From assembly GCA_020056225.1 (NCBI GenBank), contig JAGVIE010000017.1, positions 251 through 64,250 on the forward strand: 64,000 bases of DNA, in the 5' to 3' direction. The notes beneath the pieces were generated by a model. It did no database searches and was not told the origin of the DNA. It saw nothing but the letters and a program-made list of their open reading frames with translations. Below are positions 10,682-47,595 of this stretch, one piece after another. Both the position numbers and the translations under genes were made by a program. Position 1 is the first letter of the stretch. Each line of letters starts with the position of its first letter. The DNA is from Bacteroidota bacterium. Lineage in GTDB: Bacteria > Bacteroidota > Ignavibacteria > UBA10030 > SZUA-254.

Positions 10682-11734
10682 TTAGTAAGTGAACAATAAA
10701 GAAATTCTGTGTACGCCGCCCAACCTGTTGAAGTTGGCAAAACTGTAATCGACATTCATCTTTGAAAAACTTACCGGCACTATGACTCCGAAACCGCATG
10801 TAAAATCGTCCTCTGAAGAGCCATCCTTTCCGAGCAATTGCTCTCCGAATGTGCGCTTCAAACCGAGTCTAAGAGATAACATGTCATTCCATGTATATTC
10901 TGTGCCTAATCTTATATTCTCAACATTATCATTAGGGTGATTTAATTGTATAGATGATGTTACTTTGTGCAATTCAGACTGATATGGTTCGAATGCGATA
11001 CCGACCTTGAATAAAGTCGGTGGTGAGAATGATCGGAAATCAGTAACAGTAGAATCTTCGAAAAGGTTCACACTACCCGACGGCGATACGTTACCTCCAA
11101 AATTTGTGACAACAACAGCAAAACGTACAGTTCCCAAACCAGTCCAGTAATATGTTCCTATATCTACCAACACGCTCCGCATTTTTAAAATATCAAGAGT
11201 CTCTTCGATATATTTGATAGTAGTGCCGAAGCTGAATTGATTGGTTAACTGTCTTGCGTATGTTACACCAAAAGCGAGATCGCCGTATTTAAACATCTCC
11301 CCTGTTCCGTGCGGGTTAGTTTCGTTCGTTACAGGCATGTCGTTCATCGATAGAGAAATAATACTGACTCCGACAATATCCGATGGAGTCAATTTATAAG
11401 TTGCTCCGAAGAATTCATGTTTAATATCTGCAACATACTGTGTATGCGATAAGATCACTTGATTTCCATCGGCTTGTAATAATCCTGCGGGATTCCAATA
11501 GAGTGATGATGCATCGTTGCCTATAGCCACAAACGATTCGCCTAATGCAGTTGCGCGCGCGCCGACACCGATTTTAAGAAACTGAAAAGCCGATATGCCA
11601 ACACGCTGTCCGCCTAAATTGGGAATCAATTGAGCGCTGAGTTGCGCGTTAAGCGTTAAAAGTAAAATTATAGGAATGCTATATCTAAACTTCATCAATC
11701 TTTCTATTATCTTTTTTACATTCATAATAATCAT
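10682..11734 (-). CDS. FadL/PorV-PorQ family outer-membrane beta-barrel protein
   Basis: Signal peptide, then GVGARATALGESFVAIGNDASSLYWNPAGL, which is the FadL/Toluene_X N-terminal signature. It ends in an aromatic residue (..LLFTY). Located 12 bp downstream of the TonB receptor. Confidence 0.6.
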   Translation of the reverse strand: MIIMNVKKIIERLMKFRYSIPIILLLTLNAQLSAQLIPNLGGQRVGISAFQFLKIGVGARATALGESFVAIGNDASSLYWNPAGLLQADGNQVILSHTQYVADIKHEFFGATYKLTPSDIVGVSIISLSMNDMPVTNETNPHGTGEMFKYGDLAFGVTYARQLTNQFSFGTTIKYIEETLDILKMRSVLVDIGTYYWTGLGTVRFAVVVTNFGGNVSPSGSVNLFEDSTVTDFRSFSPPTLFKVGIAFEPYQSELHKVTSSIQLNHPNDNVENIRLGTEYTWNDMLSLRLGLKRTFGEQLLGKDGSSEDDFTCGFGVIVPVSFSKMNVDYSFANFNRLGGVHRISLLFTY

Positions 11735-11746
11735 TTTCCTGATGCC

Positions 11747-14650
11747 TTAGAACCTAAGAGATAAACCGAGTTTGAATGTACGGGGATTTAGATAACGAGC
11801 CGGATTATACGGATATGGGTCCAACGGCGCGGTTAAATCAGGATATAACGGATCGTTCCAATCTGTCGGTGTTACTTGACCGTATTCATATGCGGTTCCG
11901 GTTATTGGATTGATTATCTGAGCATTTTTATTGTTGAATACATTCTGGATTTCAAAGCTTAAAACTAATTTTATTAAATCAAACGATAAATATTTTTCAA
12001 AGTTCAAGTCGGTATAGAACCAATTGCTTCCGATTTGTTCATAAAGCTTTGTTCTATCAGACTGATACTCAGGTCTGCCGGTTGTCGGATTATAACGATA
12101 AAATTTCTGCGGCGTATATCTCTTCCCTGATTGAAAGAATAACCTGACATAAACATTATAATCATCGAGAATGCCTCTTCCGAATGCGAACAAAGGTTCA
12201 TTTTTGGGAATGTTAAAATTCAGATTTGCCGACGTCTGCCATGGTCTATCCCAGACAACATAATTCTCTTTCAGATTCTCTTCAACGCCCTGCTGAATGT
12301 TGTAGACGTTCTCGTTTGCGGCAGAACTTTTTCCGGTCGCGATACTGTAAGAACCCGACAATGTCGCCCTGAACATTTTCCCGATTCGCGTTTTATACTC
12401 CAACTCAATACCACGAATTCGGGCATAATCCTGGTTAATATAAATCGTATATAAACCGCGAGTCGTACCTGATATGATAGCTCGAAATTGTTTCGCTGTT
12501 ATATAATCGAAGATATCTTTGTAATATGCAGTTACCGAAAAGACATCATTCTCTGTAAGCTGATTTCTGAGGCCCAGCTCATATGCGACTGTAGTCTCTG
12601 GATTGAGATTTGGATTACCGATTGTCTGGAACGACGAACGGGATTTCGTTCCGCTGAGCTTTGAGTAAACAAATTGCGGTCTTGGCAATTTTGAAAAATG
12701 TCCATACGAGAAAAAGAGCGTTTGGTTATCCGTGATCGGGTGTGAAATCCCAAGTCGCGGACTTATACGCGCTTTCCAATATCTTCCGAACCATTTATAA
12801 CTATCTTTTGTGTATTGATCTTTGATTGCCTGCGGAACAAGAACAGCCGCCCCGGATTCAATCGCATCATCAACATATTTGCCTGGGATCCAATAATCAA
12901 GACGTAATCCAAAATTCAAAATCATCCCGCTCATAGTTATTCCGTCTTGACCATAAAGAGCGCCGTACGCAGGAAATACTTTATATATATCATTATCGAA
13001 CCCGAGCGGCTTCACCCATGGCTGTACAATATCGATCAACTGCATCTCTTGAAACCGGGTTTCTATTCCTGCTTTTATTTTATGCTTTTCGGTCGGTGTG
13101 GTTGAAAAATCAAATTTGAATGTTGATTCTTTCAGATAATGATCTCTCCATGAAGTCGGACTTCCATATTCATAGAATCCATCACCCGGTATAACATTGA
13201 TAGTATCAAGCGAGCCGGGATTCGGGTAATAATATTCCACCGGATAAGAAACAATATCCTTAGGCTCAATATAATCACCGAATGGCTTATCGGGATACGT
13301 AGCTTTTTTATTCGCATCACCTCGTACATGAGCAGTGTACAAACTCATCTTAACTTCATAAAAAGTTTTTGTGTTTAGAGTGTGAGTCCAACTTAGACTA
13401 TGCTGGGTGTTTATCTGAGTATAAGTAGCCGCATTATCGGGAATTTTCTGAAAGAGAAACTGGTACCCGGGATTCGGTTCTACGCGATCCAGTGTTGCCT
13501 GCACGGTTTGTGAATTCTGATCGATCTGGATTGATTTGCTGAACGCGTATGATAATTTCATAGTTGCTTCAGGTTTATAAGTTAATTTCGTCAGACCTGA
13601 ATAACTGTTGCTTCTTCTGGGTGAATATTTTGTGCCGCCGAGTATAGTAGAATATAATCCCTCCGGTGCGAATGCTGCATAACCAACCGGTCTTCCACCG
13701 GCAAGCGTTTCTACCCAGCGTGTATAGCCATCTGAAAAATTAGCTGAAAAATTTGAAAAGAAGCTCAGACTTCCCGGAATTGTCAATCCGATTGCCGGCA
13801 GAGCATATGTCATTATCGGTTCAGGTCCGCTAAGATTAAATTCATATATATCGGTGTTAAAATTCGATCTTGTGTCATTATTGAATCCAAAGTGATCTCT
13901 TTTATGAGCCACGGCACCTGAATAACTCTTTGCTCCCTCTTTTGTTGTTATATTGACAACGCCTGAAGTTGCTTGTCCATATTCCGCGTTATAACCACCG
14001 GTGAGTACTTCTACCTCAGCTATTGCCTGTGGTGCGATCTGCAAACCAAATCCCTGACCTGCAAGAGGATCTTGTACAGAGATGCCATCGATGAGATAAG
14101 CATTTTCGTAACTACGACCGCCGCGTATATGGATCTCATTATCCGATTGTACAACTCCAGTCTGAAGCGATACAACATCTTTCACATCTTTCACACCCGT
14201 TACCTGAATATCTTCGCTTGTAATCGACCGCCGGCTCGATGTTTCTTCGATATTGAAGAGTGGCTTTTCTCCTATAATGATAACCTCTTGTCCTAATGAA
14301 AGTACTGTCCCATCCATCTTGACGTTTAGTGTAGTCGATTCTCCCTCAGTTACTTTTATACCTGTATATTGCATTGTCTTATAGCCAATGAGACTGACTT
14401 CGACAGTATATGACCCTGGATTAATATTAGCGATGGTAAAATTCCCTTCAATGTTGGTTGCGGCGCCGTAGTAAGAGCCTTTTATAACAACATTCACACT
14501 GGGAAGTGGATCATTTGATGCTTTATCTACGACAGTACCCTTTATGGTTCCTTTTGATTGCGGGTAAGCAGGTTGAACGAAGGCAAGCAATATTATAATG
14601 GAAATTAATACTCTCATAAATCTATTCCGATGCGATATCAATTTTTTCAT
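11747..14650 (-). CDS. TonB-dependent outer-membrane receptor with N-terminal CarboxypepD_reg domain (SusC/RagA-like architecture)
   Basis: Signal peptide, then GTIKGTVVD...PLPSVNVVIKGS...GNFTI (CarboxypepD_reg), a plug domain, a 967-aa barrel, and a C-terminal ...LSLRF. Confidence 0.85.
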   Translation of the reverse strand: MKKLISHRNRFMRVLISIIILLAFVQPAYPQSKGTIKGTVVDKASNDPLPSVNVVIKGSYYGAATNIEGNFTIANINPGSYTVEVSLIGYKTMQYTGIKVTEGESTTLNVKMDGTVLSLGQEVIIIGEKPLFNIEETSSRRSITSEDIQVTGVKDVKDVVSLQTGVVQSDNEIHIRGGRSYENAYLIDGISVQDPLAGQGFGLQIAPQAIAEVEVLTGGYNAEYGQATSGVVNITTKEGAKSYSGAVAHKRDHFGFNNDTRSNFNTDIYEFNLSGPEPIMTYALPAIGLTIPGSLSFFSNFSANFSDGYTRWVETLAGGRPVGYAAFAPEGLYSTILGGTKYSPRRSNSYSGLTKLTYKPEATMKLSYAFSKSIQIDQNSQTVQATLDRVEPNPGYQFLFQKIPDNAATYTQINTQHSLSWTHTLNTKTFYEVKMSLYTAHVRGDANKKATYPDKPFGDYIEPKDIVSYPVEYYYPNPGSLDTINVIPGDGFYEYGSPTSWRDHYLKESTFKFDFSTTPTEKHKIKAGIETRFQEMQLIDIVQPWVKPLGFDNDIYKVFPAYGALYGQDGITMSGMILNFGLRLDYWIPGKYVDDAIESGAAVLVPQAIKDQYTKDSYKWFGRYWKARISPRLGISHPITDNQTLFFSYGHFSKLPRPQFVYSKLSGTKSRSSFQTIGNPNLNPETTVAYELGLRNQLTENDVFSVTAYYKDIFDYITAKQFRAIISGTTRGLYTIYINQDYARIRGIELEYKTRIGKMFRATLSGSYSIATGKSSAANENVYNIQQGVEENLKENYVVWDRPWQTSANLNFNIPKNEPLFAFGRGILDDYNVYVRLFFQSGKRYTPQKFYRYNPTTGRPEYQSDRTKLYEQIGSNWFYTDLNFEKYLSFDLIKLVLSFEIQNVFNNKNAQIINPITGTAYEYGQVTPTDWNDPLYPDLTAPLDPYPYNPARYLNPRTFKLGLSLRF

Positions 14651-16422
14651 TATCCGCCGAATTCATCTATGAAAACACGTTTCAGAAAAGCTGGAACACC
14701 AAGTCCATCTCCCGGCGGTTTTGAGGGCCACCTTTGTTCATAACCGTTCATTATGTGAAGGGGTAAGCTCAAGAAGACAAATTGTCTATTCACATCGATA
14801 ACACCTATGTTTATTCGTTTACGCCATTTAAGAGTTGTCCCAGGCATAGTAATGGTAGTGTCGGGAGGTATTGAATAGATGTAATCGGCGCCGGCTTCTT
14901 TAATAAAATCTCTGACGAAAATTGTATAGGCTCCGCCTGAGTTTAACGTCGGGGTGAATCTCAGCCGGGGGAAGGAATCGGCATCTGTAGAAGGATCAAT
15001 GGGCCAATCGTTCGGAACACGGGTGGAATATAGTGTATCTATAATCCTATCGACTGGGGCAAAATCGACTAATGAACCTCGAGGATCACCGAGGTAATAT
15101 CCGAAGCGTGTCGAATATAAAACTTTACCTCCTGCACCCGTGTAAAGATATAAAGGATATTGTGCTATCGAATGTACATGTGCCCAGTTGTCCGGAATAT
15201 AATCTGTGAACCAAAAAACGTATTTATACAGCATGAGCGTTCTCACGAATGCCGGATTGAGATTTGGTGGTACTAACTCACCCACATTTTTATCAGTTGT
15301 ACCTCGGCGTATATCCAGAACATCGAAATTTCCAAGATTTCTCGGATAGGATACACCGGGGAACGCATCTATTGCTGCAAATGCAGATCGATAAAAAGGA
15401 ATGATTGCTGTGTCCGGTACTGGCAGATCATAGTTAACAATAGTAAGTAAACTGCTCTTTGGTTTACGTACATACCAGGTATTATTTCCATCCGGCAAAG
15501 AAACCATAGGACTGTATTCACCAGCCAAATCTTTCGCCTGAAGGTAAATTTTGTTTGTATCATCGAGATGCAACCCCTGTACGGTTCCGAGTTTTTTCAT
15601 TATCGGGAAAGACCCGGAGTAAACATCCGCATCGACTACTCCTGTAGCGCCGTCCGATCTTAATCGAGGAACCTCTAATGTTACCATCGTGTGCGAAGAT
15701 GAGAACTCGAACCATGAAGCTGAATCACCTGGATTATTAAGATTTATCCTGTATGCCTTGAGAGTATTAATACCATCTATGTCGTCTCCTGTCCAAGTGA
15801 ATGTTGCAACTGTATATGTCGTATCCGGCTGCTGAATGGTTTTTGTAGGATCGAAAGGATCTTTGGAAAATTCAACTGTCGGCGGTGAATTTTTAATAGA
15901 GAATATCTGCGTCGCACCGGTTGGGTCGATTGCGTACTTCAAGTTGGGTAACCGTAAATCGTCACCGTCATAAATATTGTTGCGGTTTTTGTCCCAGTAC
16001 GGCTGTGAATTCAATCTTACTATTCCACCGACACTGATGGAATCTTTTAAAGTGTTGTCTACAGCCCGTACGATTACAGTGAAACGCTCTTTCGCAGATA
16101 GCAATGGGAATGAAACGAGACTATCATTCGCAGTCACCCATGTGTAGCCCAAAGTATCGGGGATTTGGTTGCCGGGGACACTATCGGTTTTGTAGAATGC
16201 GAACAAAAATCCCTTTACGATTCCATCAGGATCCTCGCCCCACCATTTTACCGACTGTCTGCTGATTACCGGAGCGAGTTGCTTCGACGTATCAATCTGA
16301 ATCCACAAAAACGTTTTAGGCGGTACGTTCTGTTTGGGACTAACCGGATTATCTTTCTGACAGCTCAGAAAGATCAGAGCTGCCAGAAAGACAAATATTA
16401 CGGATACGAATATTCTTGACAT
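14650..16422 (-). CDS. Lipoprotein of unknown function (590 aa)
   Basis: Signal peptide and lipobox (IFLSCQKD). Its stop overlaps the TonB receptor start (ATGA), and it abuts the upstream gene with 0 bp gap. Confidence 0.6.
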   Translation of the reverse strand: MSRIFVSVIFVFLAALIFLSCQKDNPVSPKQNVPPKTFLWIQIDTSKQLAPVISRQSVKWWGEDPDGIVKGFLFAFYKTDSVPGNQIPDTLGYTWVTANDSLVSFPLLSAKERFTVIVRAVDNTLKDSISVGGIVRLNSQPYWDKNRNNIYDGDDLRLPNLKYAIDPTGATQIFSIKNSPPTVEFSKDPFDPTKTIQQPDTTYTVATFTWTGDDIDGINTLKAYRINLNNPGDSASWFEFSSSHTMVTLEVPRLRSDGATGVVDADVYSGSFPIMKKLGTVQGLHLDDTNKIYLQAKDLAGEYSPMVSLPDGNNTWYVRKPKSSLLTIVNYDLPVPDTAIIPFYRSAFAAIDAFPGVSYPRNLGNFDVLDIRRGTTDKNVGELVPPNLNPAFVRTLMLYKYVFWFTDYIPDNWAHVHSIAQYPLYLYTGAGGKVLYSTRFGYYLGDPRGSLVDFAPVDRIIDTLYSTRVPNDWPIDPSTDADSFPRLRFTPTLNSGGAYTIFVRDFIKEAGADYIYSIPPDTTITMPGTTLKWRKRINIGVIDVNRQFVFLSLPLHIMNGYEQRWPSKPPGDGLGVPAFLKRVFIDEFGG

Positions 16423-18648
16423 TTACTTCACTAACATCATTTTTTTAACTTGATTGAAATTACTTGTTTGTAAACGATAGAAATAAATACCAGAAGAAAG
16501 TTTCGAGCCGTCGAATGTAACATGATACCGACCGGCTTTCTGGATTTCGTTTTTCAGAGTTGCGACTTCCTGTCCTAAAATATTATAAACTTTTAGAGTG
16601 ACGAAATCCGCTCTGGGAAGTCCGTACTCAATAACTGTCTTCGGATTGAACGGGTTCGGGTAGTTATTCGACAATTCGTAAACAGCCGGCAGTGGTTTAA
16701 ATGTTTCTTCCCCAACACTCAACGGCAGATATGTTCCATAGTCTGCGTTTGTTCTTGGAGCAACCTTGTACCGGTTGTAGCTGTAGTGGAGAATTCCTCT
16801 CAATCCTGCAAATTTATCACCGGTCTTAAGGATTGTTGTTCCCGGATAAATTGTATCTCCTTCAACGGTTGAGTATGTATTCTTACCATCTCTCAGAACA
16901 GTGATTTCACCTGTTTTATCATCAACGTTATATTCTGTGAATACCTGATATGTTGGATTCAGATTAGTCACCTCAACAGTATCGAATTCAACCAACATAC
17001 CTTCCCATGGCTCGGCATTAAAATCTCCATTACTCACCAACGAGCCGAATGTTCCGGTCGTAAATTTAACGGGATCGGGAATTGGATTTCCGACAGATAA
17101 TATTTCAACTGCCGAGATGTTATCGAGGCATGTAACATCACTCGTGTAATTATGATATTCGGTTATGGTTCCTGTGATCGCAACACTATCGCCTTTTTGC
17201 AGGCTTGACAATGTATCCATAATTCCATTAAACCACAGACCGCTAAACGGACCATTACCTGATTGCATATGCCATACAGATACACCACGGTTATTTATCG
17301 GGGCAAGTCCATAGTCGCTTGTATCGGAAGTTACGATACCACGAATCGTTGTTACCGCACCAACATATGGACTCCTGCCGTTAGTGAATGTTGTATACTG
17401 AACGTCATGAATAGTCAGAACACCATCAGTGACTTTATAGAAATAAAGTCCCTTAGATGTATCAGTACCGATAGCACCACCGGCGCCGTTTGCGGAAATC
17501 GAATAATATCCGTTAATATCAGTTACTTTTATAAAATATTTAACATCAGTGCCGATGGACTGAGCGGGAATATTTACGCTGTAGAGAGTATCGCTGCTAA
17601 TTGCTAACATAGTGTCGATGTTGTATGGTCCATCATTCACGCTGTAATATATTAATCGAGATGCTATTGTGGAACCAAGAGGTAATTGTTTTATAACTGC
17701 TTCGATTCTCGGCGTGCTATCGGGTGTAACAATCACAGGATAACGATACACTCTCGAAATCGCAGGACGACTCACACCAAGCACCATATCACCCGGGTAT
17801 ACAGGTGCAATGTTATATCCGTAATTATTCTGTTGTCCTGAGACTGGCGTTATCCAACCTCTAAGAGTATCAATTTGTGAAAAATCTGCGGGATGAGCGT
17901 AAGTTGACGTTGGATCTTTATGGACTCGCGTTGTGAACCATTTTGATGCGTCATAGGTGGCGATGTTGTTCCCCTCAGCATCAACTATTAAGACTCCATA
18001 ACCGGTACTTAATCTTGATACAACCGTTAAGTTTGTTAATTCCACATACTTCGCTTCTAGCGGCTCACCTGTTGTATATTTGACGCCATTAGGATATGAG
18101 CTTTGATAAAGACCACGATAAAAATCTCCGACTGCCGAATTTGTTATTGGTGGAAGCTCCTGTTGACCGATAATATCATAGGTCAAACTTCTGTTAGGTA
18201 CTATTTGAGACATGCTATTCATGGAGCTTGAAGGGAATTCTGTAATCGGACCTGTAATCTCAACAATATCACCTGGCTGAACACCAAGCATGCTAGCATA
18301 ATAAACTGAATCAGATGGATTGGTTGTAGAACTTAGATTGGGTCTTACAAATATATGACTAAAAGCACCATTGTATCCTGTATCGGCAAGTACCAAATTA
18401 TAACCGATAGATGTATAAGTAAAAACTTTTGCAGGTATCACACACACACCAACAATTCTTACTGTATCTCCAAAATAATTTGCACCTTGCAAAGTCCATC
18501 TTGTACCGACATTCTGAAGCTGGTCGGCAACTAACAATGAATCATTTGGTCGATACTGAATATCACGTATGTTGCGGTAAGGATACTGTGCGTCGGCGAT
18601 AGTCGCCAAGACAAATATCATTAATAGAACTCTTAACAAAACCTTCAT
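16423..18648 (-). CDS. Secreted protein of unknown function with type-A T9SS C-terminal domain (741 aa)
   Basis: Signal peptide. C-terminus reads NYPNPFNPKTVIEY...GIYFYRLQT...KKMMLVK. Confidence 0.7.
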   Translation of the reverse strand: MKVLLRVLLMIFVLATIADAQYPYRNIRDIQYRPNDSLLVADQLQNVGTRWTLQGANYFGDTVRIVGVCVIPAKVFTYTSIGYNLVLADTGYNGAFSHIFVRPNLSSTTNPSDSVYYASMLGVQPGDIVEITGPITEFPSSSMNSMSQIVPNRSLTYDIIGQQELPPITNSAVGDFYRGLYQSSYPNGVKYTTGEPLEAKYVELTNLTVVSRLSTGYGVLIVDAEGNNIATYDASKWFTTRVHKDPTSTYAHPADFSQIDTLRGWITPVSGQQNNYGYNIAPVYPGDMVLGVSRPAISRVYRYPVIVTPDSTPRIEAVIKQLPLGSTIASRLIYYSVNDGPYNIDTMLAISSDTLYSVNIPAQSIGTDVKYFIKVTDINGYYSISANGAGGAIGTDTSKGLYFYKVTDGVLTIHDVQYTTFTNGRSPYVGAVTTIRGIVTSDTSDYGLAPINNRGVSVWHMQSGNGPFSGLWFNGIMDTLSSLQKGDSVAITGTITEYHNYTSDVTCLDNISAVEILSVGNPIPDPVKFTTGTFGSLVSNGDFNAEPWEGMLVEFDTVEVTNLNPTYQVFTEYNVDDKTGEITVLRDGKNTYSTVEGDTIYPGTTILKTGDKFAGLRGILHYSYNRYKVAPRTNADYGTYLPLSVGEETFKPLPAVYELSNNYPNPFNPKTVIEYGLPRADFVTLKVYNILGQEVATLKNEIQKAGRYHVTFDGSKLSSGIYFYRLQTSNFNQVKKMMLVK

Positions 18649-18706
18649 TGTAAATCTCCTTTTTTATATGATAAAATTAAAAATAATATTTCATCGTGAT
18701 TATAGA

Positions 18707-38641: not shown

Positions 38642-38659
38642 TGTACCAATATTTAGGTG

Positions 38660-40153
38660 TTACTTAACGAACATCATCTTTTTCATGTCGACAAAATCAC
38701 CGGCGACTATCTTGTAGAAGTACATTCCGGTTGGTAATCTCGATGCATCAAAAGAAACAGTATACATTCCTGCATACTGAGTTTCATTGATCAGCGAGAC
38801 TATTTCCTGTCCGAGCATGTTGTATACCTTCAACGTCACGAACGATTCTTTCGGTATTCCGTATTCAATCAAAGTAGTTGGATTGAACGGATTGGGATAG
38901 TTCTGACGAAGTTGGTATGTAGTTGGTACCGGGGCTTTTTCTTTTACCCCGACCGGATCTTGCAAGGTCGATACGCGCATAACGCCAAATGTATCAACTG
39001 TTGTAGCCGATGACAAATACTTTGTCATTTGCAGTGTATGGTTATTTCCAAAGCCGGCTTCATTATCATTTCCGCCGCCGTTATTGATCGCATCACCCCA
39101 GTTGATGCAATATTTGTAAAGAACATTCAGCGGAGTATAAGCGGCGAACGTGATGATACTAGAGAATATCTTGTCGCCCGATGTTACATCACCATGCGTA
39201 GCATCGTCATAGAGTTGGATGACTCTCGTACTATCGGCATTGGGCCATCCTCCGTTGGGCCACTGCAACGGTAACGCACTTCCTGCGACATGAACGGTGT
39301 TGACGACAGGGAATGGACTTCCGCTTATGGCAGACTGAGCGCCATCGGTGTAAACCGTAAGCTTGATGTTGCATGGTTGATTGATAACGTTATCCAATGA
39401 TCCGTCGTTAAAGGAAGCGCTGAATGATGCGGCAAGATTTGTTATATCATCGGCAGTAAAAGTATAAATTCTGTTAGATACACTTTCCCAGTTATTCTCT
39501 TCGTACCAGAACTTGAATTCTATCTTCTCACCCAATCCGCGTCTGATTACAGTCGTACCTTCGTATACATCGGGATTTAGCGGATTCGATGTCAGTATTG
39601 TCGTCTTCGATGACCAGCCATTGAAATCTCCATTCACAGATACCGTGTCTGTCGATGGATCGAACCGTCCCGACAACCTTTCCAATTCCATGTTGCAAGA
39701 GAATGTTACATCAATATCATATTGCTGTACGAAAATGCTGTCGTTGTTGAACCAGGCGTAATATGAACTCAACCCTTCAGGCAGTACGTACTGTCGGTTC
39801 GATACACCTTCCCATGTCCCCGCTCCGCCATGCTTGAAGTTGTATTTGAATTCGATTGTTGAACCAACGGTGCCGGGTGTTAACGTAATGGTATATATCG
39901 AATCATTATTCGGATCAGTCATAATATCAGTCGGACCCCAACTATTGAATCCTCCGCTCACCATGAGTGTGTCTAACGATGGATCGAATAATCCCTTCTT
40001 AATCTGTACACCCATATTGCATTGGAATTCCACGGTAGCCATGGTATCTTGAGTAAGGCTTACCTGAAATAAGTCCCCAACCTGAACTACCGGACTCGCG
40101 TATCCGACAGTCACGAGAAGCAATATGAGGAAAAATGTGTATTGAAGTTTCAT
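38660..40153 (-). CDS. Secreted protein with two tandem starch-binding-like (CBM20/25/26-type) modules and type-A T9SS CTD (497 aa)
   Basis: Two repeats match the three repeats in the 1041-aa protein (FQCNMGVQIKKGLFDPSLDTLMVSGGFNSWG...; FSCNMELERLSGRFDPSTDTVSVNGDFNGWS...). C-terminus reads NYPNPFNPTTLIEY...GMYFYKIVA...KMMFVK. Confidence 0.65.
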   Translation of the reverse strand: MKLQYTFFLILLLVTVGYASPVVQVGDLFQVSLTQDTMATVEFQCNMGVQIKKGLFDPSLDTLMVSGGFNSWGPTDIMTDPNNDSIYTITLTPGTVGSTIEFKYNFKHGGAGTWEGVSNRQYVLPEGLSSYYAWFNNDSIFVQQYDIDVTFSCNMELERLSGRFDPSTDTVSVNGDFNGWSSKTTILTSNPLNPDVYEGTTVIRRGLGEKIEFKFWYEENNWESVSNRIYTFTADDITNLAASFSASFNDGSLDNVINQPCNIKLTVYTDGAQSAISGSPFPVVNTVHVAGSALPLQWPNGGWPNADSTRVIQLYDDATHGDVTSGDKIFSSIITFAAYTPLNVLYKYCINWGDAINNGGGNDNEAGFGNNHTLQMTKYLSSATTVDTFGVMRVSTLQDPVGVKEKAPVPTTYQLRQNYPNPFNPTTLIEYGIPKESFVTLKVYNMLGQEIVSLINETQYAGMYTVSFDASRLPTGMYFYKIVAGDFVDMKKMMFVK

Positions 40154-40198
40154 AATATATCCCCTTAAATTATTTAATAACGGTTAATTAATTATTGA

Positions 40199-41200
40199 TT
40201 AAAATTTAACTCCTATACCAAAATGTTGCGTGTAACTTAAATTGCCAAATTCTTGATAGGCATAGTCGAGACTTGTGGAAATACCGTGCGATACTTCATA
40301 CTTCAAACCGAATCCGAGGCATAATCCTTCTTCGGAATTATCAGTGAACGCCGATTTATATCCTGCTCGCAAGAACAGATTTTCATTAAATGAATATTCG
40401 CCTCCTACATTAAGGGCTTCTGAATTATCGTTCGGGTGTATCGCATCGATCCCCAATGTAATTCTATGGCGGTCAGTAATTGAAATATCTTTTGCGAGAC
40501 CTACTCTGAATAATAACGGCAAGGGGTAAGAATCGGTTTTCAATTTGGCAAGAATCTGGTTATTATTCCCGTGAATATCCGTATTGACGTCATATAGAAC
40601 ATAAAGGTCTTTGCCATCGAGCTGCATATCGGTACCGAAGTTCGATATTGTGGCTCCTATGCGCAAACCATAGAAATCTGAAATAAACAACGTTCCGATA
40701 TCAACCGCAAATGCGTCTGCGGTTGTATGCCATATTCTTTGATTTATATATTTCACACTCATACCAAGTGAAAAACGGTCAGTAAGATTATACGAATAAG
40801 TTAGGGCAAGTGCAATATCTTTTGCTGTGAAATATTCCCCTGTTCCGTCTTGTTCTTCAAGGGTTGTTACTTCCATTTCACCATAATCGAGGTAAGTAAC
40901 GCTGAGTCCCGCGGCGCCGTATGAACCGAGATTAATGATTGCGCCAGCCCAGTTTAATGTGATATCGGCAAACCAGCTTGTATGCGCAAAAGAAACACCG
41001 TTCGATTCTAGTCTTGAGGCGCCTGCAGGGTTCCAATACAACGCACTGACATCGTTCGCAGTTGAAATAAACGCTCCACCCATTGAAACCGCTTTTGGTC
41101 CTAGACCGATATTTAGAAAAGGCGCGGCAGTAGAGCCTACTTTGGTCTGACTGTATAATGTTGAAAAAGAAAGTATGAACAATATTATAAATTTCTTCAT
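40199..41200 (-). CDS. FadL/PorV-PorQ family outer-membrane beta-barrel protein
   Basis: Signal peptide, then LGPKAVSMGGAFISTANDVSALYWNPAGASRL (FadL-type N-terminal signature). C-terminal Phe. Lies 12 bp downstream of the 1204-aa gene. Confidence 0.6.
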   Translation of the reverse strand: MKKFIILFILSFSTLYSQTKVGSTAAPFLNIGLGPKAVSMGGAFISTANDVSALYWNPAGASRLESNGVSFAHTSWFADITLNWAGAIINLGSYGAAGLSVTYLDYGEMEVTTLEEQDGTGEYFTAKDIALALTYSYNLTDRFSLGMSVKYINQRIWHTTADAFAVDIGTLFISDFYGLRIGATISNFGTDMQLDGKDLYVLYDVNTDIHGNNNQILAKLKTDSYPLPLLFRVGLAKDISITDRHRITLGIDAIHPNDNSEALNVGGEYSFNENLFLRAGYKSAFTDNSEEGLCLGFGLKYEVSHGISTSLDYAYQEFGNLSYTQHFGIGVKF

Positions 41201-41212
41201 AATTAACTTTGC

Positions 41213-44200
41213 CTACTTGATGAGTGCAAATTTACCGGTCTTATTTCCAATTTGTGGAGCATCGAGCACATAAATATAAATCCCGAATGCAGCATCTAGA
41301 TTTTCCTCTGTTCTGAGGTTCCACACAACATCACCCACATAGATATCATCGTGATGCAGAGTTTTTACTAATTCTCCGCGGACAGTATAAATCGATATCT
41401 TTGACCCGGGAGGGATATACGTAAATCTGATGCTTCGTTCACCACGCCCGCTTGTTTGTGTGCTTAACAGTTTCGGTTCAGCTTGATGAGTAACGACATA
41501 CGGATTAGGTACAACTTTAATTTTATCAAGTTCCGATTTCGCTTGTCCGATGTTTATATATGCTCCGTGTGTCGTAAATTCCATTGTATCTGTGCGGCTG
41601 AATGGTTTTAAAGTCGCAATACGCAATATGCCTGCTTGCTCAAGCGGCGCATTTGCAGTGTTGTAGTAGATATTGACTCTCCATGTTCTTGTTAATATAC
41701 CCTCTATCATCTCCTTGAAATAAATACTATGCGTTGTACCTACAGTGCCGGTTTTAAAGTATACAAAACGGATATATTCGTTTGTAGATAAATTTTTAAT
41801 TTTAAAATTAACCGGTTTACTTGTTATTGTATTCGTCGGCGTTCGCGGATAGAGTGTATCAGCAATTGACCATGGAATTCCAGTCGTATCACCATAAAAT
41901 TCTAATTGATAATCATAAGGCATCTTGATGCCGTTGTAAGTTGCACCTATACCTGAACTTGCCCAAAAGAAAGGCGTAAATACATACGTCGGTGGTGTCG
42001 GCGAGGCTATTCCCTGAAAATATGAATTGAGAGTATCCCTAAGAATTGTATTATCGTTCAACATCTGCACTCTGAAGCCATGCTGAATCGGAGTATTGCC
42101 GTAGAATGTAGTATAATATTGGACCAGTGTGTCATAAGTTCCGGTATATATGTTCGTGTCACTTGTAAATGATTTACCGTTAAGTATGATCTCAACACCT
42201 TTGGGTATCGAAACAGTTTCCTCCGGGTCGACAATTATAGTTTCATTCGTAGTCGAGATGAACAGTGTATCAGGTGTTGTCTTATCTATCATTGACCAAT
42301 CTTTAGTATACCCTTGTATGGCGCTGTCGGAAAATACGATCTGATACTTGTTATTATCTCTTACCATTTTGTCATCAATAACTTCAACCCATGTCTCACC
42401 GGTTCCCCTGAACGGTTCTATCTTTGCTACATCCGAGGGTTTAGCATTCGTATACCCTATCGGTCTCTTACCCGGCGTGATATAAGCTGTATTGTCATCG
42501 GTTATGATCTGCCCGGTATTGGTTATGAAAACATATTTAGAATTTTCAGAGGGAAATATATTCAATGATTCAGCACCTGCATCGTATGAACATACAGCAT
42601 AATAATATCGTTGACCTGGGATAACTGTTGTATCAACAAATTTGGTTACAATCCCGCTATCATTTCCTAAGTAGAATGTAGTTCCTCCTACCTTTTCCAA
42701 CAAATCTCCGGAAGGATGGAAAAATCCCTTGACATTATTTGTTAGATCGAATTGCGCTATCGGTTTATCGAATGCAAGAACACCCAATGCGTCTGTTATT
42801 TCACGCGAATCCTGGAAACCTGCGTCTGTAGCACGGTATATTTTGTAACCTTCAAAATCTTTTTTCTTCGTGATAAAATCACGGGAATTTTCAGTCAGCG
42901 CGCCATTCCAATAAATAACTACATTTCCGTTATCTTCGGTGATATTTATTTTTGGCTTTCTTGGTGGTTGAGGAAATTTATACCCTGCATTATAAATTTG
43001 CTGGACAATCTTTTTATTTCGAACGACGTCTTCATATGTTTCTCCGAATAAAAGCGCGACCGAGAACCTCTCTATTTGTTCAGGTCTCATTGGAAAATAT
43101 CCCGATGAATAAATGAAGTCGCCGTCCTGCGGCTGTGACGGTACGATATCAAACCTGCCGGGTGTCATTCGTGACCACAAGAGCGCGTCGTCACTCATGT
43201 CAGGAGAAGCGCTGATATTGAAAAAATTAAAACTCGTCAGACCTATCTGATCAGATTCGTCAGGATCGGTTTTACCGAAATTGGGTTCACCCTGATCGGG
43301 CATTCCGTTTCCTTCTGTTCCGTCAATATCGGGAGAGATATAACCGTCATCATTTGAACCGATTCCGTCGGAACCGACATCATCATATGTCGCATCCCAA
43401 TCACCATCCTCATCGCCTGACCAGTGCATCAAGTATAATACTGTACCTTCTGGTTTTTTTACCCAGCTCGATATCATCGTTCCGGCTTCATTATCTCTCT
43501 TCTCATCAATCAAAGGATCGCTCACGCCGGCGCCAGTCACATAATTTTTATATTTGAGTATCGGAAAACCTCTTCGTTGTCTCGTTTCATAATGAACTGC
43601 CTGGTTTTCATCAATTAATCCATCAAGGTCATTATCTATACCGTCATATGCTGAAGCATGAGGCACTGATACTCCATTAACAATCTGCGCAATATGTCCT
43701 TCTCGAAATTTAGTGACCCCAGCAACGATGATGAATCGAACGCCCAATGAATACACCGTATCGATAGGTCCATGTGTAGTATATATAGATCTATCGTATG
43801 TTACCGGATCTATCAAAACAATTTTTTTACCAACTGGATAAGAAACTGAATCAAAATCGGCTGAAGTAAAAACGGGAGAATTTGGATCGGGTGAGTCTCC
43901 ATCATTATCGATTCCATCATAAGGATTTCCCGGAGATTCAAGAAATGCATAAGCAACATATCCAACCTTCTGACCTTTATTACCTTTGTTGTCGTTATCC
44001 CAGGAATAAGTTATGTTATCGTTTATATCGAAAGTTCCAAGATCATCCCCGCTATCTCCGTCACCGCCTGCCAGTGTTCCGACAACTGTTCCAAAAACAG
44101 ATTTCCTATAAGTCTTTTTTCCTTCGTTCTTGATATCATATAACCAGAAGATGGCATCTTCAGCAAGGAAGCTCGACCACTGTAAGCCTCGTGCAGTCAG

Positions 44201-44827
44201 CGTTAATCCCATTCCGTGACGAGTGCTGTCAGTGCTATCCGGTTTGAAATATCCGTTGAACTCATCGTCCCATTGATCATCGGAAATGAAATAACTTTCT
44301 TGATCTGCGTTAACGATCCCTCTTCCAAAATAACCATTCCATTGTGTATAGCCCTCCTGATCAATCCAATTAGGATGATCAGCCCAGCCATTAAGGGGCC
44401 AGGATGAAGGTAAATGACTCATCGCAATCGAAGAGTAACTCGGATTACGATATCCGGGGCGCGGATTCCAGCCCCAAAAATATCCTGCAGAAGGATGATG
44501 CTCGTTCGCTTGTCCGTTTCTTGGACCGCGAGATATACAAACTGAGTGCCCGGTATCATTCCGGGAATTTATGAATTCAACACCGATCATCGGGATCAAA
44601 TCACCGATATAATTAAAGCCGGAACCAAGGGGCCATTCACCGCGAATATCTGTGCCGGTGTTGAATCCTGCTACCTGACCGTCGTCATAAAATGAAATAC
44701 CAACTCTATTTCCGGTATGGAAACCGATTGTTCGTGGATAGCGTATTGGATCGGATCGTTGTCCCCATGTATCTGTAACGGCAATGAGGAATCCAAGAGC
44801 GAAGAAAATAATTGTAAACCTTTTCAT
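41213..44827 (-). CDS. Large secreted Ca-binding-repeat protein (1204 aa) with a divergent CTD
   Basis: Signal peptide and thrombospondin-type-3-like acidic repeats (GIDNDGDSPDPN; DGIDNDLDGLIDEN; DDGYISPDIDGTEGNGMPDQGE). The C-terminal ~100 aa (VVPNPY...IYTVRGELV...GIYIYVLDA...GKFALIK) matches the C-terminus of the 715-aa protein. Confidence 0.6.
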   Translation of the reverse strand: MKRFTIIFFALGFLIAVTDTWGQRSDPIRYPRTIGFHTGNRVGISFYDDGQVAGFNTGTDIRGEWPLGSGFNYIGDLIPMIGVEFINSRNDTGHSVCISRGPRNGQANEHHPSAGYFWGWNPRPGYRNPSYSSIAMSHLPSSWPLNGWADHPNWIDQEGYTQWNGYFGRGIVNADQESYFISDDQWDDEFNGYFKPDSTDSTRHGMGLTLTARGLQWSSFLAEDAIFWLYDIKNEGKKTYRKSVFGTVVGTLAGGDGDSGDDLGTFDINDNITYSWDNDNKGNKGQKVGYVAYAFLESPGNPYDGIDNDGDSPDPNSPVFTSADFDSVSYPVGKKIVLIDPVTYDRSIYTTHGPIDTVYSLGVRFIIVAGVTKFREGHIAQIVNGVSVPHASAYDGIDNDLDGLIDENQAVHYETRQRRGFPILKYKNYVTGAGVSDPLIDEKRDNEAGTMISSWVKKPEGTVLYLMHWSGDEDGDWDATYDDVGSDGIGSNDDGYISPDIDGTEGNGMPDQGEPNFGKTDPDESDQIGLTSFNFFNISASPDMSDDALLWSRMTPGRFDIVPSQPQDGDFIYSSGYFPMRPEQIERFSVALLFGETYEDVVRNKKIVQQIYNAGYKFPQPPRKPKINITEDNGNVVIYWNGALTENSRDFITKKKDFEGYKIYRATDAGFQDSREITDALGVLAFDKPIAQFDLTNNVKGFFHPSGDLLEKVGGTTFYLGNDSGIVTKFVDTTVIPGQRYYYAVCSYDAGAESLNIFPSENSKYVFITNTGQIITDDNTAYITPGKRPIGYTNAKPSDVAKIEPFRGTGETWVEVIDDKMVRDNNKYQIVFSDSAIQGYTKDWSMIDKTTPDTLFISTTNETIIVDPEETVSIPKGVEIILNGKSFTSDTNIYTGTYDTLVQYYTTFYGNTPIQHGFRVQMLNDNTILRDTLNSYFQGIASPTPPTYVFTPFFWASSGIGATYNGIKMPYDYQLEFYGDTTGIPWSIADTLYPRTPTNTITSKPVNFKIKNLSTNEYIRFVYFKTGTVGTTHSIYFKEMIEGILTRTWRVNIYYNTANAPLEQAGILRIATLKPFSRTDTMEFTTHGAYINIGQAKSELDKIKVVPNPYVVTHQAEPKLLSTQTSGRGERSIRFTYIPPGSKISIYTVRGELVKTLHHDDIYVGDVVWNLRTEENLDAAFGIYIYVLDAPQIGNKTGKFALIK

Positions 44828-44844
44828 TTCAATTTTACCGATAA

Positions 44845-47595
44845 TTAAAAACTAATTGATGTACCTAATTCAATCCTTCTCGGTTCGGAAAAGAAGCCGG
44901 GATTGATATATAGATCATCGAGCGTATTGTAATATAATTTTGGATTGATTTTTTCTGCATCCAATTTATCGAATGTAAATTTCGAGTCGCCGGAATTCGC
45001 ATAAACAGTTCTTGGATTCTCAAGATCAAGTAGATTAAATACTCTTAAGAACAATGAAAGAGTTACGTTTCCGATAGTAATATTTTTATTTGCTTTTAAA
45101 TCGATGTTAAAAATTGACGGACGGAAAGCGCTGTTTCTCGGATATGAATTTTGCTTCACAGCGCTATTCTTGTTGACAGCCGGTGTATATGGTTGACCCG
45201 AATAATAATTGGCTATCATGGAACAGCCATAATCTTTCGACTTCGTGTACGCGAGTACAAGATTGATGGAGTGCCTCTGGTCCCAGTCAAGTGGCGCTAT
45301 GTATGTTTCGGGCGTCGCTCCTCCGAGTACAGCGTTACGTGCATCAGTAGGATTGGAAGCGTTTCCTTGAGTTATAGAGAATGTATAATCAATGCTTGCC
45401 GCCAAACCGCCGGAAAAACGTTTATCTAACTTAAGAACAATTCCTTTCGAGGAACCGAAATCGGAATTTGAATATTGACTGTAACTCTTAGATTTTGTAA
45501 AAACAAGTATATCCTGCGTCTGTGTTCCTGTTAGGTCTCTGAAATCTTCAAAGAACATAGTCACATCGGCTCCAATATCATCGCTGATCTGTTGCTTTAA
45601 ACCGATTTCACCTTTAACAGTTTTCTGAGGTTGTAAGTCTGCGTTACCTACAAGACCTTGATTGCCGGAGCCGTCTCCCAACTTGAAGTTTGGATTCGTG
45701 TACAATAATTCGTAACTCGGCAATTGGAAAAAATGTCCATACGAAAAATGAATAACGCCTGTGGTACTGATCGGGAATGCCAACCCTACCCTTGGACTTA
45801 ACTTACTTTTTATTGATGCTTTTTTATACCAATATGTTTGCCTCACCTCAAGTGTATCCTGATGAAGTGGATTTAAAGGAGTGCGAATGTCAGGATCACT
45901 CGGATCGCGGAGAATTCTACCGTCCGGATTGAATATATCATACCTCAAACCAAAATTGAATATGATATAATCCGATTCAAATTTCGATTGCCAGTAAACA
46001 GACGCCTCGTATGGTTTCCTCAGATATATGTCGTTATCTTGTGATGATAAAGGTGGAATTTCAACGTCATATGGACTTGTTTTTCCCCCCTGGGCATCCA
46101 GTTTCGGAATCAAATTAATATTATGATAAAAAACCCGGTGCTGTTTGAATTCACCGCCGCTTTGAAATGATAATCTTTCAGAAAGCTGCGACGTCCAATC
46201 TAATTTAGCCGCATAGGTTCCTGTACTCCTGGAGAATATATTCGTATTTGTTCCACCTATTGCAAAACTATACGGTGGGTTTTGTGCGAGCGAGTTATCT
46301 ACATAAAATGACGGCTGTGTCGGATCACCGGTATAAATATTCTCTAATAGATAATGATGATACTCTTTAAATAGGTATGAAAAACTCAGATTATAAAAAC
46401 TGTAAGATGAAACGGCATGATTGATACTTAAAATGTTAGAATGTGTTCTTCGAAATCGATGAAGATTATTATCGGGAGTTAACCGCTGACTATGATCATA
46501 ATCCTGATATTTTTGATCGTCTAAGATGTAATTATAAGCGATCTTCAGGTTAGATAATAATCGATAGCTCAGTTTACCTTGTGCAAACATCCTTTCGTTT
46601 GAATTCATAGGAACAAATCCGCTGTCGCCGTTCTGAGTGATTATATAATTTGCTCCTCCTGAACTTGTTTCCTGCCTCGATAAATCAGAAGTTAAAAATA
46701 CACGCCGCCCATATAGATGACCTGTGTTGTAAAAATATCTACCGTTCGCGAAGAACGACAATTTATCCTGAATGATAGGTCCGCTTAAACTTCCTTCAAA
46801 ACTTCTAATTGAGAATGGCTTTACTTTTGAAAGGTTCCAGTAAATATTATCTTTGTTGGCAATATAACTTCCTGAATATGTTGTAAAGTTTCCCGATAGC
46901 GCATTACCTCCGTCTCGCGTAACAATGTTGACAAGACCCGACATAGCCTGCCCATATTCAGCATTGAACGCGCCGCTTACAACTTGCAATTCCTGAATAA
47001 CATTTGCTCCAACATCCACAGTGTTGCTGTTGTCATAAGCATCGGTAACGGAAACTCCATCAATCTGATATGCTATCTGCCCCGCTCGCCCGCCTCTCAG
47101 GTGTAATTGACCATCTGATGATACTGCGATTCCGGCTTGCAATCTTATCAGATCGCGAACTTCAGTCACTGCAAGCTCCGAAATTAATTCTTTACCAACA
47201 ATAGCAGTCGATGCCGTTAGGTCCCGCTGAATCACAGGCCTCTCAGCGGTAATCACAACCTCCTTTTGTTCCACCATTGTTTCTGTTAATACAAAGTCCT
47301 GTCGGGTAGTTAAATCTATTGATACTTTTACTCCGTCTACAATGATTGGATTGTATCCGAGTAAAGATGCTCTTATTGTGTAGTTACCCGGTGATAGATT
47401 CAGGATTGAATATTCACCATCAAGATTTGTTGCCGCTCCTAATGTCGTACCGGGAATGGTAATGTTAACTCCGACTAATGGCTCCTTAGTTATAACATCA
47501 ATAACTTTGCCAGCTATTTTACCGGTATTACCTGCGTAGATAGTTGTTAGAAAGAAAAGAGAAAGAAGAAAGAAAATTAATATCCGTTTATTCAT
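44845..47595 (-). CDS. TonB-dependent outer-membrane receptor with N-terminal CarboxypepD_reg domain (SusC/RagA-like architecture)
   Basis: Signal peptide, then GKIAGKVIDVITKEPLVGVNITIPGT...GEYSI, a plug and a 916-aa barrel. C-terminus ...GTSISF. Confidence 0.85.
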   Translation of the reverse strand: MNKRILIFFLLSLFFLTTIYAGNTGKIAGKVIDVITKEPLVGVNITIPGTTLGAATNLDGEYSILNLSPGNYTIRASLLGYNPIIVDGVKVSIDLTTRQDFVLTETMVEQKEVVITAERPVIQRDLTASTAIVGKELISELAVTEVRDLIRLQAGIAVSSDGQLHLRGGRAGQIAYQIDGVSVTDAYDNSNTVDVGANVIQELQVVSGAFNAEYGQAMSGLVNIVTRDGGNALSGNFTTYSGSYIANKDNIYWNLSKVKPFSIRSFEGSLSGPIIQDKLSFFANGRYFYNTGHLYGRRVFLTSDLSRQETSSGGANYIITQNGDSGFVPMNSNERMFAQGKLSYRLLSNLKIAYNYILDDQKYQDYDHSQRLTPDNNLHRFRRTHSNILSINHAVSSYSFYNLSFSYLFKEYHHYLLENIYTGDPTQPSFYVDNSLAQNPPYSFAIGGTNTNIFSRSTGTYAAKLDWTSQLSERLSFQSGGEFKQHRVFYHNINLIPKLDAQGGKTSPYDVEIPPLSSQDNDIYLRKPYEASVYWQSKFESDYIIFNFGLRYDIFNPDGRILRDPSDPDIRTPLNPLHQDTLEVRQTYWYKKASIKSKLSPRVGLAFPISTTGVIHFSYGHFFQLPSYELLYTNPNFKLGDGSGNQGLVGNADLQPQKTVKGEIGLKQQISDDIGADVTMFFEDFRDLTGTQTQDILVFTKSKSYSQYSNSDFGSSKGIVLKLDKRFSGGLAASIDYTFSITQGNASNPTDARNAVLGGATPETYIAPLDWDQRHSINLVLAYTKSKDYGCSMIANYYSGQPYTPAVNKNSAVKQNSYPRNSAFRPSIFNIDLKANKNITIGNVTLSLFLRVFNLLDLENPRTVYANSGDSKFTFDKLDAEKINPKLYYNTLDDLYINPGFFSEPRRIELGTSISF

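Follow-up and report, generated by a model that had tools for sequence, protein, structure and literature searches.

What is a small outer-membrane barrel doing next to a TonB-dependent receptor (TBDR), and what is the large secreted protein that is encoded with them? The question is raised by a stretch of 64,000 nucleotides from a Bacteroidota bacterium of the class Ignavibacteria (positions 251 to 64,250 of contig JAGVIE010000017.1), here called the window. Two loci on its minus strand, A and B, each encode one TBDR, one barrel and one large protein. The large proteins, of 715 and 1204 aa, belong to one family, for which the name BIG is used. The TBDR, BIG and the barrel probably form a SusD-independent sugar-uptake machine, a reading drawn from sequence comparison and structure prediction. 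The observation is far more general than the single window revealed; the three-gene cassette is spread across phyla of the Fibrobacterota-Chlorobiota-Bacteroidota (FCB) group.

The six open reading frames (ORFs) concerned, named in an earlier note on this DNA, are all present on the minus strand at the coordinates given there. In cassette B the first gene encodes TBDR_B (44845-47595, 916 aa), the second BIG_B (41213-44827, 1204 aa) and the third barrel_B (40199-41200, 333 aa). The gap between TBDR_B and BIG_B is 17 bp and that between BIG_B and barrel_B is 12 bp, the latter as reported before. Locus A begins with BIG_A, a short member of the family (18707-20854, 715 aa). TBDR_A (11747-14650, 967 aa) is followed by barrel_A (10682-11734, 350 aa) with a gap of 12 bp by the ORF coordinates, and BIG_A lies outside this interval, two genes upstream of TBDR_A. 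Thus the gene after TBDR_B is BIG and the gene after TBDR_A is the barrel, and the description of a small barrel downstream of both receptors holds. TBDR_A and TBDR_B are the sole TBDRs among the large ORFs of the window. The barrels share 33% identity (E 1e-54) and the receptors 26% over the full length (E 7e-77). The two BIG proteins show only patchy similarity by BLASTP (E 4e-13 and 5e-6), limited to an FN3-like middle and the C-terminal ~125 aa. Profile-profile alignment of the two families by hhalign, however, showed end-to-end homology (Prob 100%, E 1.4e-41, 617 columns), which bears out the proposed paralogy of BIG_A and BIG_B. Cassettes A and B are themselves paralogs, with the gene order rearranged in A.

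The cassette is conserved well outside this organism. The best homologs, 57-95% identical, come from metagenome-assembled genomes of Ignavibacteriales. Loci were fetched by barrel similarity alone, with one genome per GTDB species, and in the best 78 loci of at least 576 confirmed relatives the ORFs were labelled by the window's proteins. The order TBDR, BIG, barrel on the same strand was found for 66 barrels in the 78 loci. For 13 further barrels BIG is present and then the contig ends; a handful of barrels deviate, some of them in loci with fragmented ORFs. TBDR_B orthologs stand upstream of BIG in 63 loci. The genes remain tightly spaced in the relatives, with median gaps of 15.5 bp (TBDR-BIG) and 12 bp (BIG-barrel). 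The hosts are Ignavibacteria, Melioribacteraceae, Calditrichota, KSB1, Neomarinimicrobiota, Kryptonium, Zhuqueibacterota and Rhodothermales. Median identity of the three cassette proteins to those of the window is 58/60/61% in near loci and 38/33/47% in far loci. A TBDR and a protein with a CTD-like tail (CTD, C-terminal domain) therefore accompany the barrel across several FCB phyla, which answers the question of adjacency that the earlier note had left to a count in relatives. The pairwise-distance matrices of the cassette parts correlate at r = 0.82-0.94. This mirror-tree result is not counted as support for the machine, because it shows only the shared history of all parts.

Some genomes carry more than one copy. 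Tandem cassettes occur in four loci (L037, L044, L049, L053); in three (L026, L027, L039) there is a second cassette whose BIG has ~700 aa, and in one (L019) a second TBDR and barrel. In two metagenome-assembled genomes (MAGs) cassettes lie on separate contigs (L020/L073 and L015/L077). The tandem and second cassettes point to duplication and diversification, as with SusCD pairs. A homologous cassette is present in a cultured isolate, Stygiobacter electus 09-Me (L079, NZ_JARGDL010000016.1), which offers an experimental handle. In one MAG labelled 'uncultured Alphaproteobacteria' (L063, CAZPKG010000004.1) the cassette and its flanks are very like those of a Calditrichaeota locus (L058); this MAG is probably mislabelled or a contaminated bin. 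A literature search found no published description of the cassette; the Melioribacter and Caldithrix genome papers are silent on it.

Both barrels are outer-membrane proteins of the PorV/PorQ family. In hidden Markov model searches barrel_A scores 217.1 bits and barrel_B 229.3 bits on NCBIfam NF033709 (PorV/PorQ family, cutoff 90), nearly full-length on the model. Orthologs are named 'PorV/PorQ family protein' by the Prokaryotic Genome Annotation Pipeline. When a profile of 30 barrel orthologs was searched against the PDB, the best match was F. johnsoniae PorV (E 1.3e-23), and the FadL-type TbuX came at E 0.15. The AlphaFold2 (AF2) model of barrel_B (predicted local distance difference test, pLDDT, 81; predicted template-modelling score, pTM, 0.77) shows 14 long strands, preceded by a helical segment at the N-terminus. 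The top Foldseek match of this model is the PorV of a CTD-bound translocon (8gl6_F; E 6.6e-15, TM 0.70), followed by 6h3i_F; FadL, TodX and CymD are also significant matches, with TM of about 0.55.

More specific identities were tried for the barrels and rejected. Against the equivalog models barrel_A and barrel_B score 81.1 and 94.7 bits for PorV proper (NF033710, cutoff 250), 102.4 and 118.4 bits for PorQ proper (NF033711, cutoff 220, with only the N-terminal half aligned) and 88 and 76.8 bits for PorV2 (NF052325, cutoff 325). BamG reached 23 bits against 250. On the Pfam model PF03349 Toluene_X (gathering threshold 29.7 bits) barrel_A scores 24.3 bits, and barrel_B 30.2 bits with no stretch that passes alone. 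Neither barrel matches a PorP/SprF model in Pfam or NCBIfam at E <= 0.01, so that the earlier likening to PorP/SprF gives way to membership of the PorV/PorQ family. The N-terminal signature G..A.A.G.A..A..D.SA.YWNPAG, which the barrels had been said to share, also fails in both, with 8/15 and 10/15 of its fixed positions present; common to the two are only the core ND.S.LYWNPAG and an upstream G..F. The barrels thus do not classify cleanly as FadL transporters, and their neighbours are conserved.

The BIG proteins have no established family. Pfam and NCBIfam scans assign none to them, Pfam on 36 BIG orthologs gave noise only, and a sequence-profile search of the PDB with full-length BIG found no relative. 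The 3,493 BIG homologs are all named 'hypothetical'. A profile search of 1.84 billion cluster representatives (clusters at 50% identity) found 5,108 members at E <= 1e-3, 763 of them at E <= 1e-30. BIG is ~60% identical over 1,200 aa across Ignavibacteria. Members range from 700 to 1,300 aa. BIG_B has a Sec/SPI (signal peptidase I) signal peptide and Asp/Gly-rich loops; its middle is FN3-like and its end CTD-like, and its AF2 model is all-beta. The signal peptides of the BIG proteins are of the ordinary SPI kind; a lipobox-like match was seen in 1/68 and is spurious. All 68 members end in [LVI][IV]K. The 'Ca-binding repeat' ascribed to these proteins is putative: Asp/Gly-rich stretches are present and each protein has a single strict DxDxDG-like site, but none of the Ca-binding domains in Pfam is matched. 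Distant cassettes resemble the window's BIG only from about residue 435-475 onward. For this reason the N-terminal ~450 aa could carry substrate specificity, which is a guess.

The end of BIG is the part that points to a mechanism. In BIG_B a C-terminal domain of ~110 aa (41216-41545, minus strand; VPNPY...IYTVRGELV...WNL...GIYIY...GKFALIK) appears as a divergent type-A-like CTD of the T9SS (type IX secretion system). First, profile-profile comparison by hhalign of 70 BIG C-termini with 91 canonical type-A CTDs gave Prob 95.8% and E 7e-9; the BIG domain keeps the PNP, G..V and G.Y motifs and has an insertion of about 15 aa. Second, when the BIG tails were compared one by one with NCBIfam models, 57/70 matched the C-terminus of the PorZ model, within its last ~100 positions, 35/70 matched PorU and 11/70 the generic type-A model TIGR04183 (E <= 0.01). 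Third, the BIG CTD profile found just two structures in the PDB, PorZ (5m11, residues 694-758, E 8.9e-5) and PorU (6za2, residues 1085-1152, E 0.023). Within BIG, moreover, conservation is highest in the CTD, where the mean p-distance is 0.47 against 0.59 for the rest. By these comparisons the domain is homologous to the type-A CTD but divergent, and is most like the CTDs of PorZ and PorU.

The earlier note had described the tail of the 1204-aa protein as a non-canonical CTD, which agrees with this result, and had drawn an analogy to type-B cargo, which does not: the type-B models (PF13585 CHU_C, TIGR04131) were rejected for BIG with no match. BIG as PorZ proper, a protein of two beta-propellers and a CTD, was likewise rejected. 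BIG_A matches the PorZ model weakly and at the C-terminus only (2.4e-4), reaching 19.7 bits on the NF052228 equivalog with its cutoff of 260, and the matches of the family as a whole are to the tail. BIG_A and BIG_B have no at-threshold match to the type-A models PF18962 and TIGR04183.

The resemblance to PorZ and PorU matters because of what becomes of such tails. Canonical type-A CTDs are cleaved in the systems studied, and the cargo is linked to lipopolysaccharide (LPS) or released (PMC10202324). PorZ and PorU are the two T9SS substrates with uncleaved CTDs that are kept bound to PorQ and PorV, and it has been proposed in a review that cognate PorV-like barrels shield such CTDs from cleavage (PMC10202324). 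PorP-like barrels also anchor cargo, the type-B proteins that are encoded next door (PMC9143113). Since the BIG tail is nearest to the retained CTDs of PorZ and PorU, the better precedent for the barrel-BIG pair is PorZ-PorQ and PorU-PorV, not SprB-SprF.

Both receptors are assigned as TonB-dependent transporters on the basis of a Plug domain, a barrel domain and a TonB-box-like motif. TBDR_A matches the Pfam families TonB_dep_Rec_b-barrel (3.9e-26), CarboxypepD_reg (2.3e-19) and Plug (2.8e-13); TBDR_B matches CarbopepD_reg_2 (1.8e-18), Plug (3.7e-8) and OMP_b-brl_4 (1.4e-9). Their earlier description as CarboxypepD_reg TonB receptors was correct. The TonB-box-like segments, judged by eye against the textbook consensus, lie between CarboxypepD_reg and Plug (QEVIIIGEKP in TBDR_A, KEVVITAERP in TBDR_B). 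The SusC/RagA model TIGR04056 (cutoff 368) was rejected for both, TBDR_A reaching 100 bits and TBDR_B 42.7 bits with only the N-terminal extension and plug covered.

Cassette B lies inside a roughly 32-kb alpha-glucan utilisation island, at about 28900-61200, which encodes several GH13 (GH, glycoside hydrolase) proteins, GH31, a phosphorylase-like protein, MalE, MalK, permeases and CTD proteins with CBM53/CBM20 (CBM, carbohydrate-binding module). At least five island proteins have T9SS type-A CTDs, including a 1393-aa GH13 protein and a 1041-aa CBM53/CBM20 protein. Directly after barrel_B, in the window and in most close orthologous loci, is a gene for a CBM20-like starch-binding protein with a canonical type-A CTD; the wider flanks differ. 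In the window this protein has 497 aa (38660-40153, minus strand; Por_Secre_tail 1.9e-9, CBM_20 1e-5, TIGR04183 8.7e-13). The minus strand continues with a 490-aa GH13 protein resembling cyclomaltodextrinase and maltodextrin glucosidase, which has a signal peptide and no CTD (37110-38582; Alpha-amylase 1.4e-77; Cyc-maltodext_AglB 8.7e-105, below the equivalog cutoff). Next on this strand are a 1005-aa GH13 alpha-amylase that has a type-A CTD in addition to CBM48-like and PKD-like domains (34092-37109; Alpha-amylase 1.5e-37, Por_Secre_tail 2e-9), and a 417-aa MalE-like ABC solute-binding lipoprotein with the lipobox LSC (32751-34004; SBP_bac_8 7.4e-26, MalE model 8.7e-40). Judged by these genes, cassette B is the alpha-glucan (starch/maltodextrin) version of the cassette.

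Distant cassettes have a similar setting. A Pfam scan of 85 proteins that adjoin them found a type-A CTD (Por_Secre_tail) in 36/85. Sugar-related domains were CBM20 (7), sugar solute-binding proteins (6), GH16 (5), CBM48 (5), Malectin (4), CBM9 (4), CBM4_9 (4) and GH3 (2), and LacI-type regulator domains were found in 5. Because the neighbours carry CBM, GH, sugar solute-binding and LacI domains, the cassette is viewed as the portable core of glycan-utilisation loci. Peptidyl-prolyl isomerases (PPIase, Rotamase_2) recur as well (8/85); these SurA/rotamase-type neighbours may be periplasmic chaperones for the outer-membrane components. No SusD adjoins the TBDRs in the window, and none is among the top 25 families of the 85 neighbours.

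How might the parts work together? The component families, their synteny across phyla and their co-divergence are observed directly, as are the PorZ/PorU-like CTD, the lack of a lipobox in BIG and the glycan context. From these a series of steps can be proposed. BIG would cross the inner membrane by Sec, by means of its SPI signal peptide, and remain unlipidated. The PorZ/PorU-like CTD would then carry it through the T9SS and, uncleaved, would dock on the 14-strand barrel encoded by the neighbouring gene, as PorZ does on PorQ and PorU on PorV. Docking would tether a protein of 700-1,300 aa at the surface with no lipid or LPS anchor. The tethered BIG would stand beside or over the co-encoded TBDR, where it might capture substrate or act as a lid. 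The polymer would be cut by further products of the locus, its T9SS-secreted CBM proteins and glycoside hydrolases, and the TBDR would import the oligosaccharides in a TonB-dependent manner. Periplasmic GH13 enzymes and a MalE-type ABC importer would complete uptake, the MalE-like lipoprotein serving as the inner-membrane leg. We infer T9SS export of BIG, retention of its CTD, its complex with the TBDR and its binding or lid role. Bearing on T9SS export is that many canonical CTD proteins are encoded by the organism. The present data somewhat favour a SusD-independent glycan-uptake complex in which BIG, after export through the T9SS, docks on its own barrel and works with the TBDR. The earlier note had offered two alternatives, a dedicated pairing of cargo and anchor or an accessory of the TonB receptor. 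The comparative data fit both at once, and that interpretation is now partly supported.

A number of points weigh against this reading. The contact between barrel, BIG and TBDR is putative. The tail of BIG_B taken alone falls below every CTD model threshold, and in locus A three genes separate BIG_A from barrel_A. The full-length model of BIG is only moderate (pLDDT 76, pTM 0.60); its Foldseek match to PorZ has a very low TM of 0.09-0.13, on which a PorZ-like body was not accepted, and its other matches are generic FN3/Ig arrays. Pfam and PDB scans recognise no carbohydrate-binding or catalytic domain in BIG, so that a ligand-binding or lid role is a guess. The partial correlation of barrel and CTD, controlling for the TBDR, is 0.004, that is, no specific coupling past the shared history of the parts. 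The barrel tracks the TBDR better (partial correlation 0.56), which leaves a direct barrel-TBDR relationship possible. Finally, the loci were sampled by likeness to barrel_B, and the census is for that reason biased toward starch-type cassettes.

The correlation result bears on another assignment of the barrel. In place of BIG it could, in the manner of PorV, carry or dock the canonical type-A CTD proteins encoded in its own locus, such as the CBM20-CTD and GH13-CTD proteins; the enzymes would then be held near the TBDR and BIG would have a separate role. The missing coupling between barrel and BIG CTD fits such a dock. So do the CBM20-CTD gene that comes right after the barrel in the window and most close loci and the high share of Por_Secre_tail among the distant neighbours. 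The CTD-bearing neighbours, however, vary or are missing (for example in L014, L021 and L022) whereas BIG is invariably adjacent, and it is the BIG tail that is of the retained, PorZ/PorU-like kind, while canonical type-A CTDs are cleaved in the systems studied (PMC10202324). A dock for the enzymes alone is therefore thought unlikely, and BIG is kept as the partner of the barrel.

A different question is whether BIG, in a cassette that otherwise works as proposed, is an enzyme of an unrecognised glycoside hydrolase, lyase or protease family. Its large size, its strong conservation across Ignavibacteria and its many invariant residues, acidic ones included, would suit an enzyme, and the variable N-terminal ~450 aa of distant cassettes could follow the substrate. 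But no catalytic family is matched in Pfam, NCBIfam or the PDB, and dedicated GH enzymes are already encoded in the loci. An enzymatic BIG is judged a little less likely again than the enzyme dock, and a surface-binding BIG is preferred.

The direction of transport could also be reversed. The Oar transporter of Myxococcus is a TBDR that works outward. By analogy, the CarboxypepD_reg TBDR might export or surface-expose BIG, and not import nutrients, with the barrel as an assembly factor. A BIG protein that is not a lipoprotein needs a route to the surface, BIG always comes after the TBDR, and TBDR_B matches the generic OMP_b-brl_4 and not the classical TBDR barrel model. The T9SS-type CTD of BIG nevertheless accounts for export already, and periplasmic GH13 enzymes, sugar-binding proteins and ABC importers beside the cassette are what would be expected for import. 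An outward-working TBDR is very unlikely. The barrels could lastly be ordinary FadL-type channels for hydrophobic compounds that stand beside TonB receptors for unrelated reasons, as their near-threshold Toluene_X scores and the FadL, TodX and CymD fold matches might suggest, but this is the least likely of all, since scores on the PorV/PorQ model are far higher, sequence and fold searches both rank PorV first, and the adjacency to BIG and TBDR is conserved across phyla in glycan loci that have no lipid or aromatic catabolism genes.

The remaining genes of locus A are all on the minus strand. BIG_A is followed by a secreted protein of 741 aa that combines an OB-fold (oligonucleotide/oligosaccharide-binding fold) and a partial ExeM/NucH-like segment with a canonical type-A CTD (16423-18648; Por_Secre_tail 7.4e-12, TIGR04183 7.8e-13, ExeM_NucH 3.7e-10, partial). 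With its OB-fold and extracellular-nuclease-like segment, this protein suggests that cassette A may target a non-glycan. It is followed by a 590-aa lipoprotein with the lipobox FLSC (14650-16422), whose stop overlaps the start of TBDR_A by 1 nt; Pfam and NCBIfam scans found no family for it, and its place upstream of TBDR_A orthologs is conserved. Directly downstream of barrel_A, and conserved next to its orthologs, is a 365-aa NHL-repeat lipoprotein with the lipobox ITGC (9577-10674; NHL 8e-7). The order BIG, CTD protein, lipoprotein, TBDR, barrel, NHL lipoprotein is kept in independent metagenome contigs with 55-92% barrel identity, and the position of BIG_A is conserved in L082, L083 and L088-L090. 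Usually next in the locus is a 364-aa protein with DUF1028 and TPR (8372-9466; DUF1028 3.9e-75; synteny in L082-L084). The last gene encodes a small 174-aa lipoprotein (7847-8371), with the lipobox VAGC.

A terminator-like hairpin with a T-run lies just past this last gene, at 7628-7645 on the minus strand. Promoter-like counts are at the level of shuffled sequence in both regions; terminator-like counts are at that level at locus A and only modestly above it around locus B. Because these scans are near shuffle level, the operon structure rests on the short gaps and the one hairpin after locus A.

Two other features of the window were recorded. Between the loci a 791-aa ORF with a GTG start (23700-26075, plus strand) matches family-B DNA polymerase (DNA_pol_B 1.3e-15, exonuclease domain 4e-9). 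At 4455-7615 on the minus strand two paralogous class-I aminoacyl-tRNA synthetases of the Glu/Gln type, 567 and 485 aa long, are encoded side by side; the anticodon domains are GlnRS-type in one and GluRS-type in the other.

Polysaccharide utilisation loci (PULs) are by general agreement recognised by their SusC-SusD pairs, on which PUL prediction depends. The Ignavibacteria, Calditrichota and Marinimicrobia groups are abundant in sediments, wastewater and the ocean. If the proposal is true, glycan-uptake capacity is being missed systematically in these groups. The role of PorV/PorQ-type barrels would widen from T9SS attachment to private anchors for nutrient-uptake proteins, and a family of ~5,100 clusters would have a function in place of its present 'hypothetical' label. 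The cassette would also provide a natural multi-copy system in which to study how a CTD escapes cleavage. Taken furthest, the cassette would be a third architecture of TonB-dependent glycan capture, in which the surface partner of the transporter, unlike SusD or BtuG, is no lipoprotein and has no covalent link to LPS, but is a T9SS-exported giant held by its uncleaved, PorZ/PorU-like CTD in a private PorQ-like barrel. It would be a modular, T9SS-assembled 'utilisome' that replaces SusCD across Ignavibacteriota, Calditrichota, KSB1, Marinimicrobia and relatives, with BIG as the specificity element. This wider picture is tentative, and rather more doubtful than the docked complex itself.

How does the cassette compare with known systems? 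With PorZ-PorQ and PorU-PorV of the Porphyromonas gingivalis T9SS attachment complex it has in common a 14-strand barrel of the PorV/PorQ family and a partner with an Ig-like CTD of the PorZ/PorU kind. Here, however, barrel and partner are encoded side by side, share an operon with a TBDR and lie inside glycan loci, and there are several paralogous copies per genome (two in the window; further copies in L026, L027, L037, L044, L049 and L053). In addition the barrels are below the PorQ and PorV cutoffs and BIG is like PorZ only at the CTD. The pairs SprB-SprF and PG1035-PorP share with it the arrangement of a FadL-fold barrel gene directly downstream of a large cargo gene, and there the barrel anchors the cargo (PMC9143113). 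But the barrel here belongs to NF033709 and the CTD is type-A-like, and the known pairs have no linkage to a TBDR.

Two systems that lack SusD also come close. In the non-SusD lids of Bacteroides (BtuG-BtuB; bioRxiv 10.1101/2023.03.17.533168; PMC10404256), as these reports describe them, a non-SusC TonB-dependent transporter is encoded next to a surface protein that caps or feeds it. Those lids are lipoproteins in the same accounts, whereas BIG has no lipobox and has instead a CTD and a dedicated barrel. An atypical PUL for cellulose in Cytophaga hutchinsonii, chu_1276-chu_1280 (PMC12016534), has no SusD; it encodes outer-membrane proteins and proteins like surface glycan-binding proteins (SGBP), and this FCB bacterium, which has a T9SS, needs it to use polysaccharide. 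Compared by description only, it differs in having 375-aa SGBP-B-like proteins and no BIG-family protein.

Another close system is the SusC-SusD core of Bacteroidota PULs (Sus, utilisomes). Both have a TonB-dependent transporter with an N-terminal CarboxypepD_reg-type extension, and the next gene encodes a large extracytoplasmic partner. Around both lie genes for CBM proteins, glycoside hydrolases and regulators, and cassette B is a starch locus like Sus. In contrast to SusD, the partner here is all-beta, measures 700-1,300 aa and lacks both a SusD domain and a lipid anchor, and the TBDRs fail the SusC model. The third gene, the barrel, is obligatory here, and inner-membrane uptake is by ABC importers. 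The cassette thus resembles a hybrid of PorZ-PorQ-type anchoring and a SusC-SusD-type pair of transporter and partner, and a member of neither. In Ignavibacteria and the neighbouring FCB phyla it may well hold the place that SusC-SusD has in Bacteroidia.

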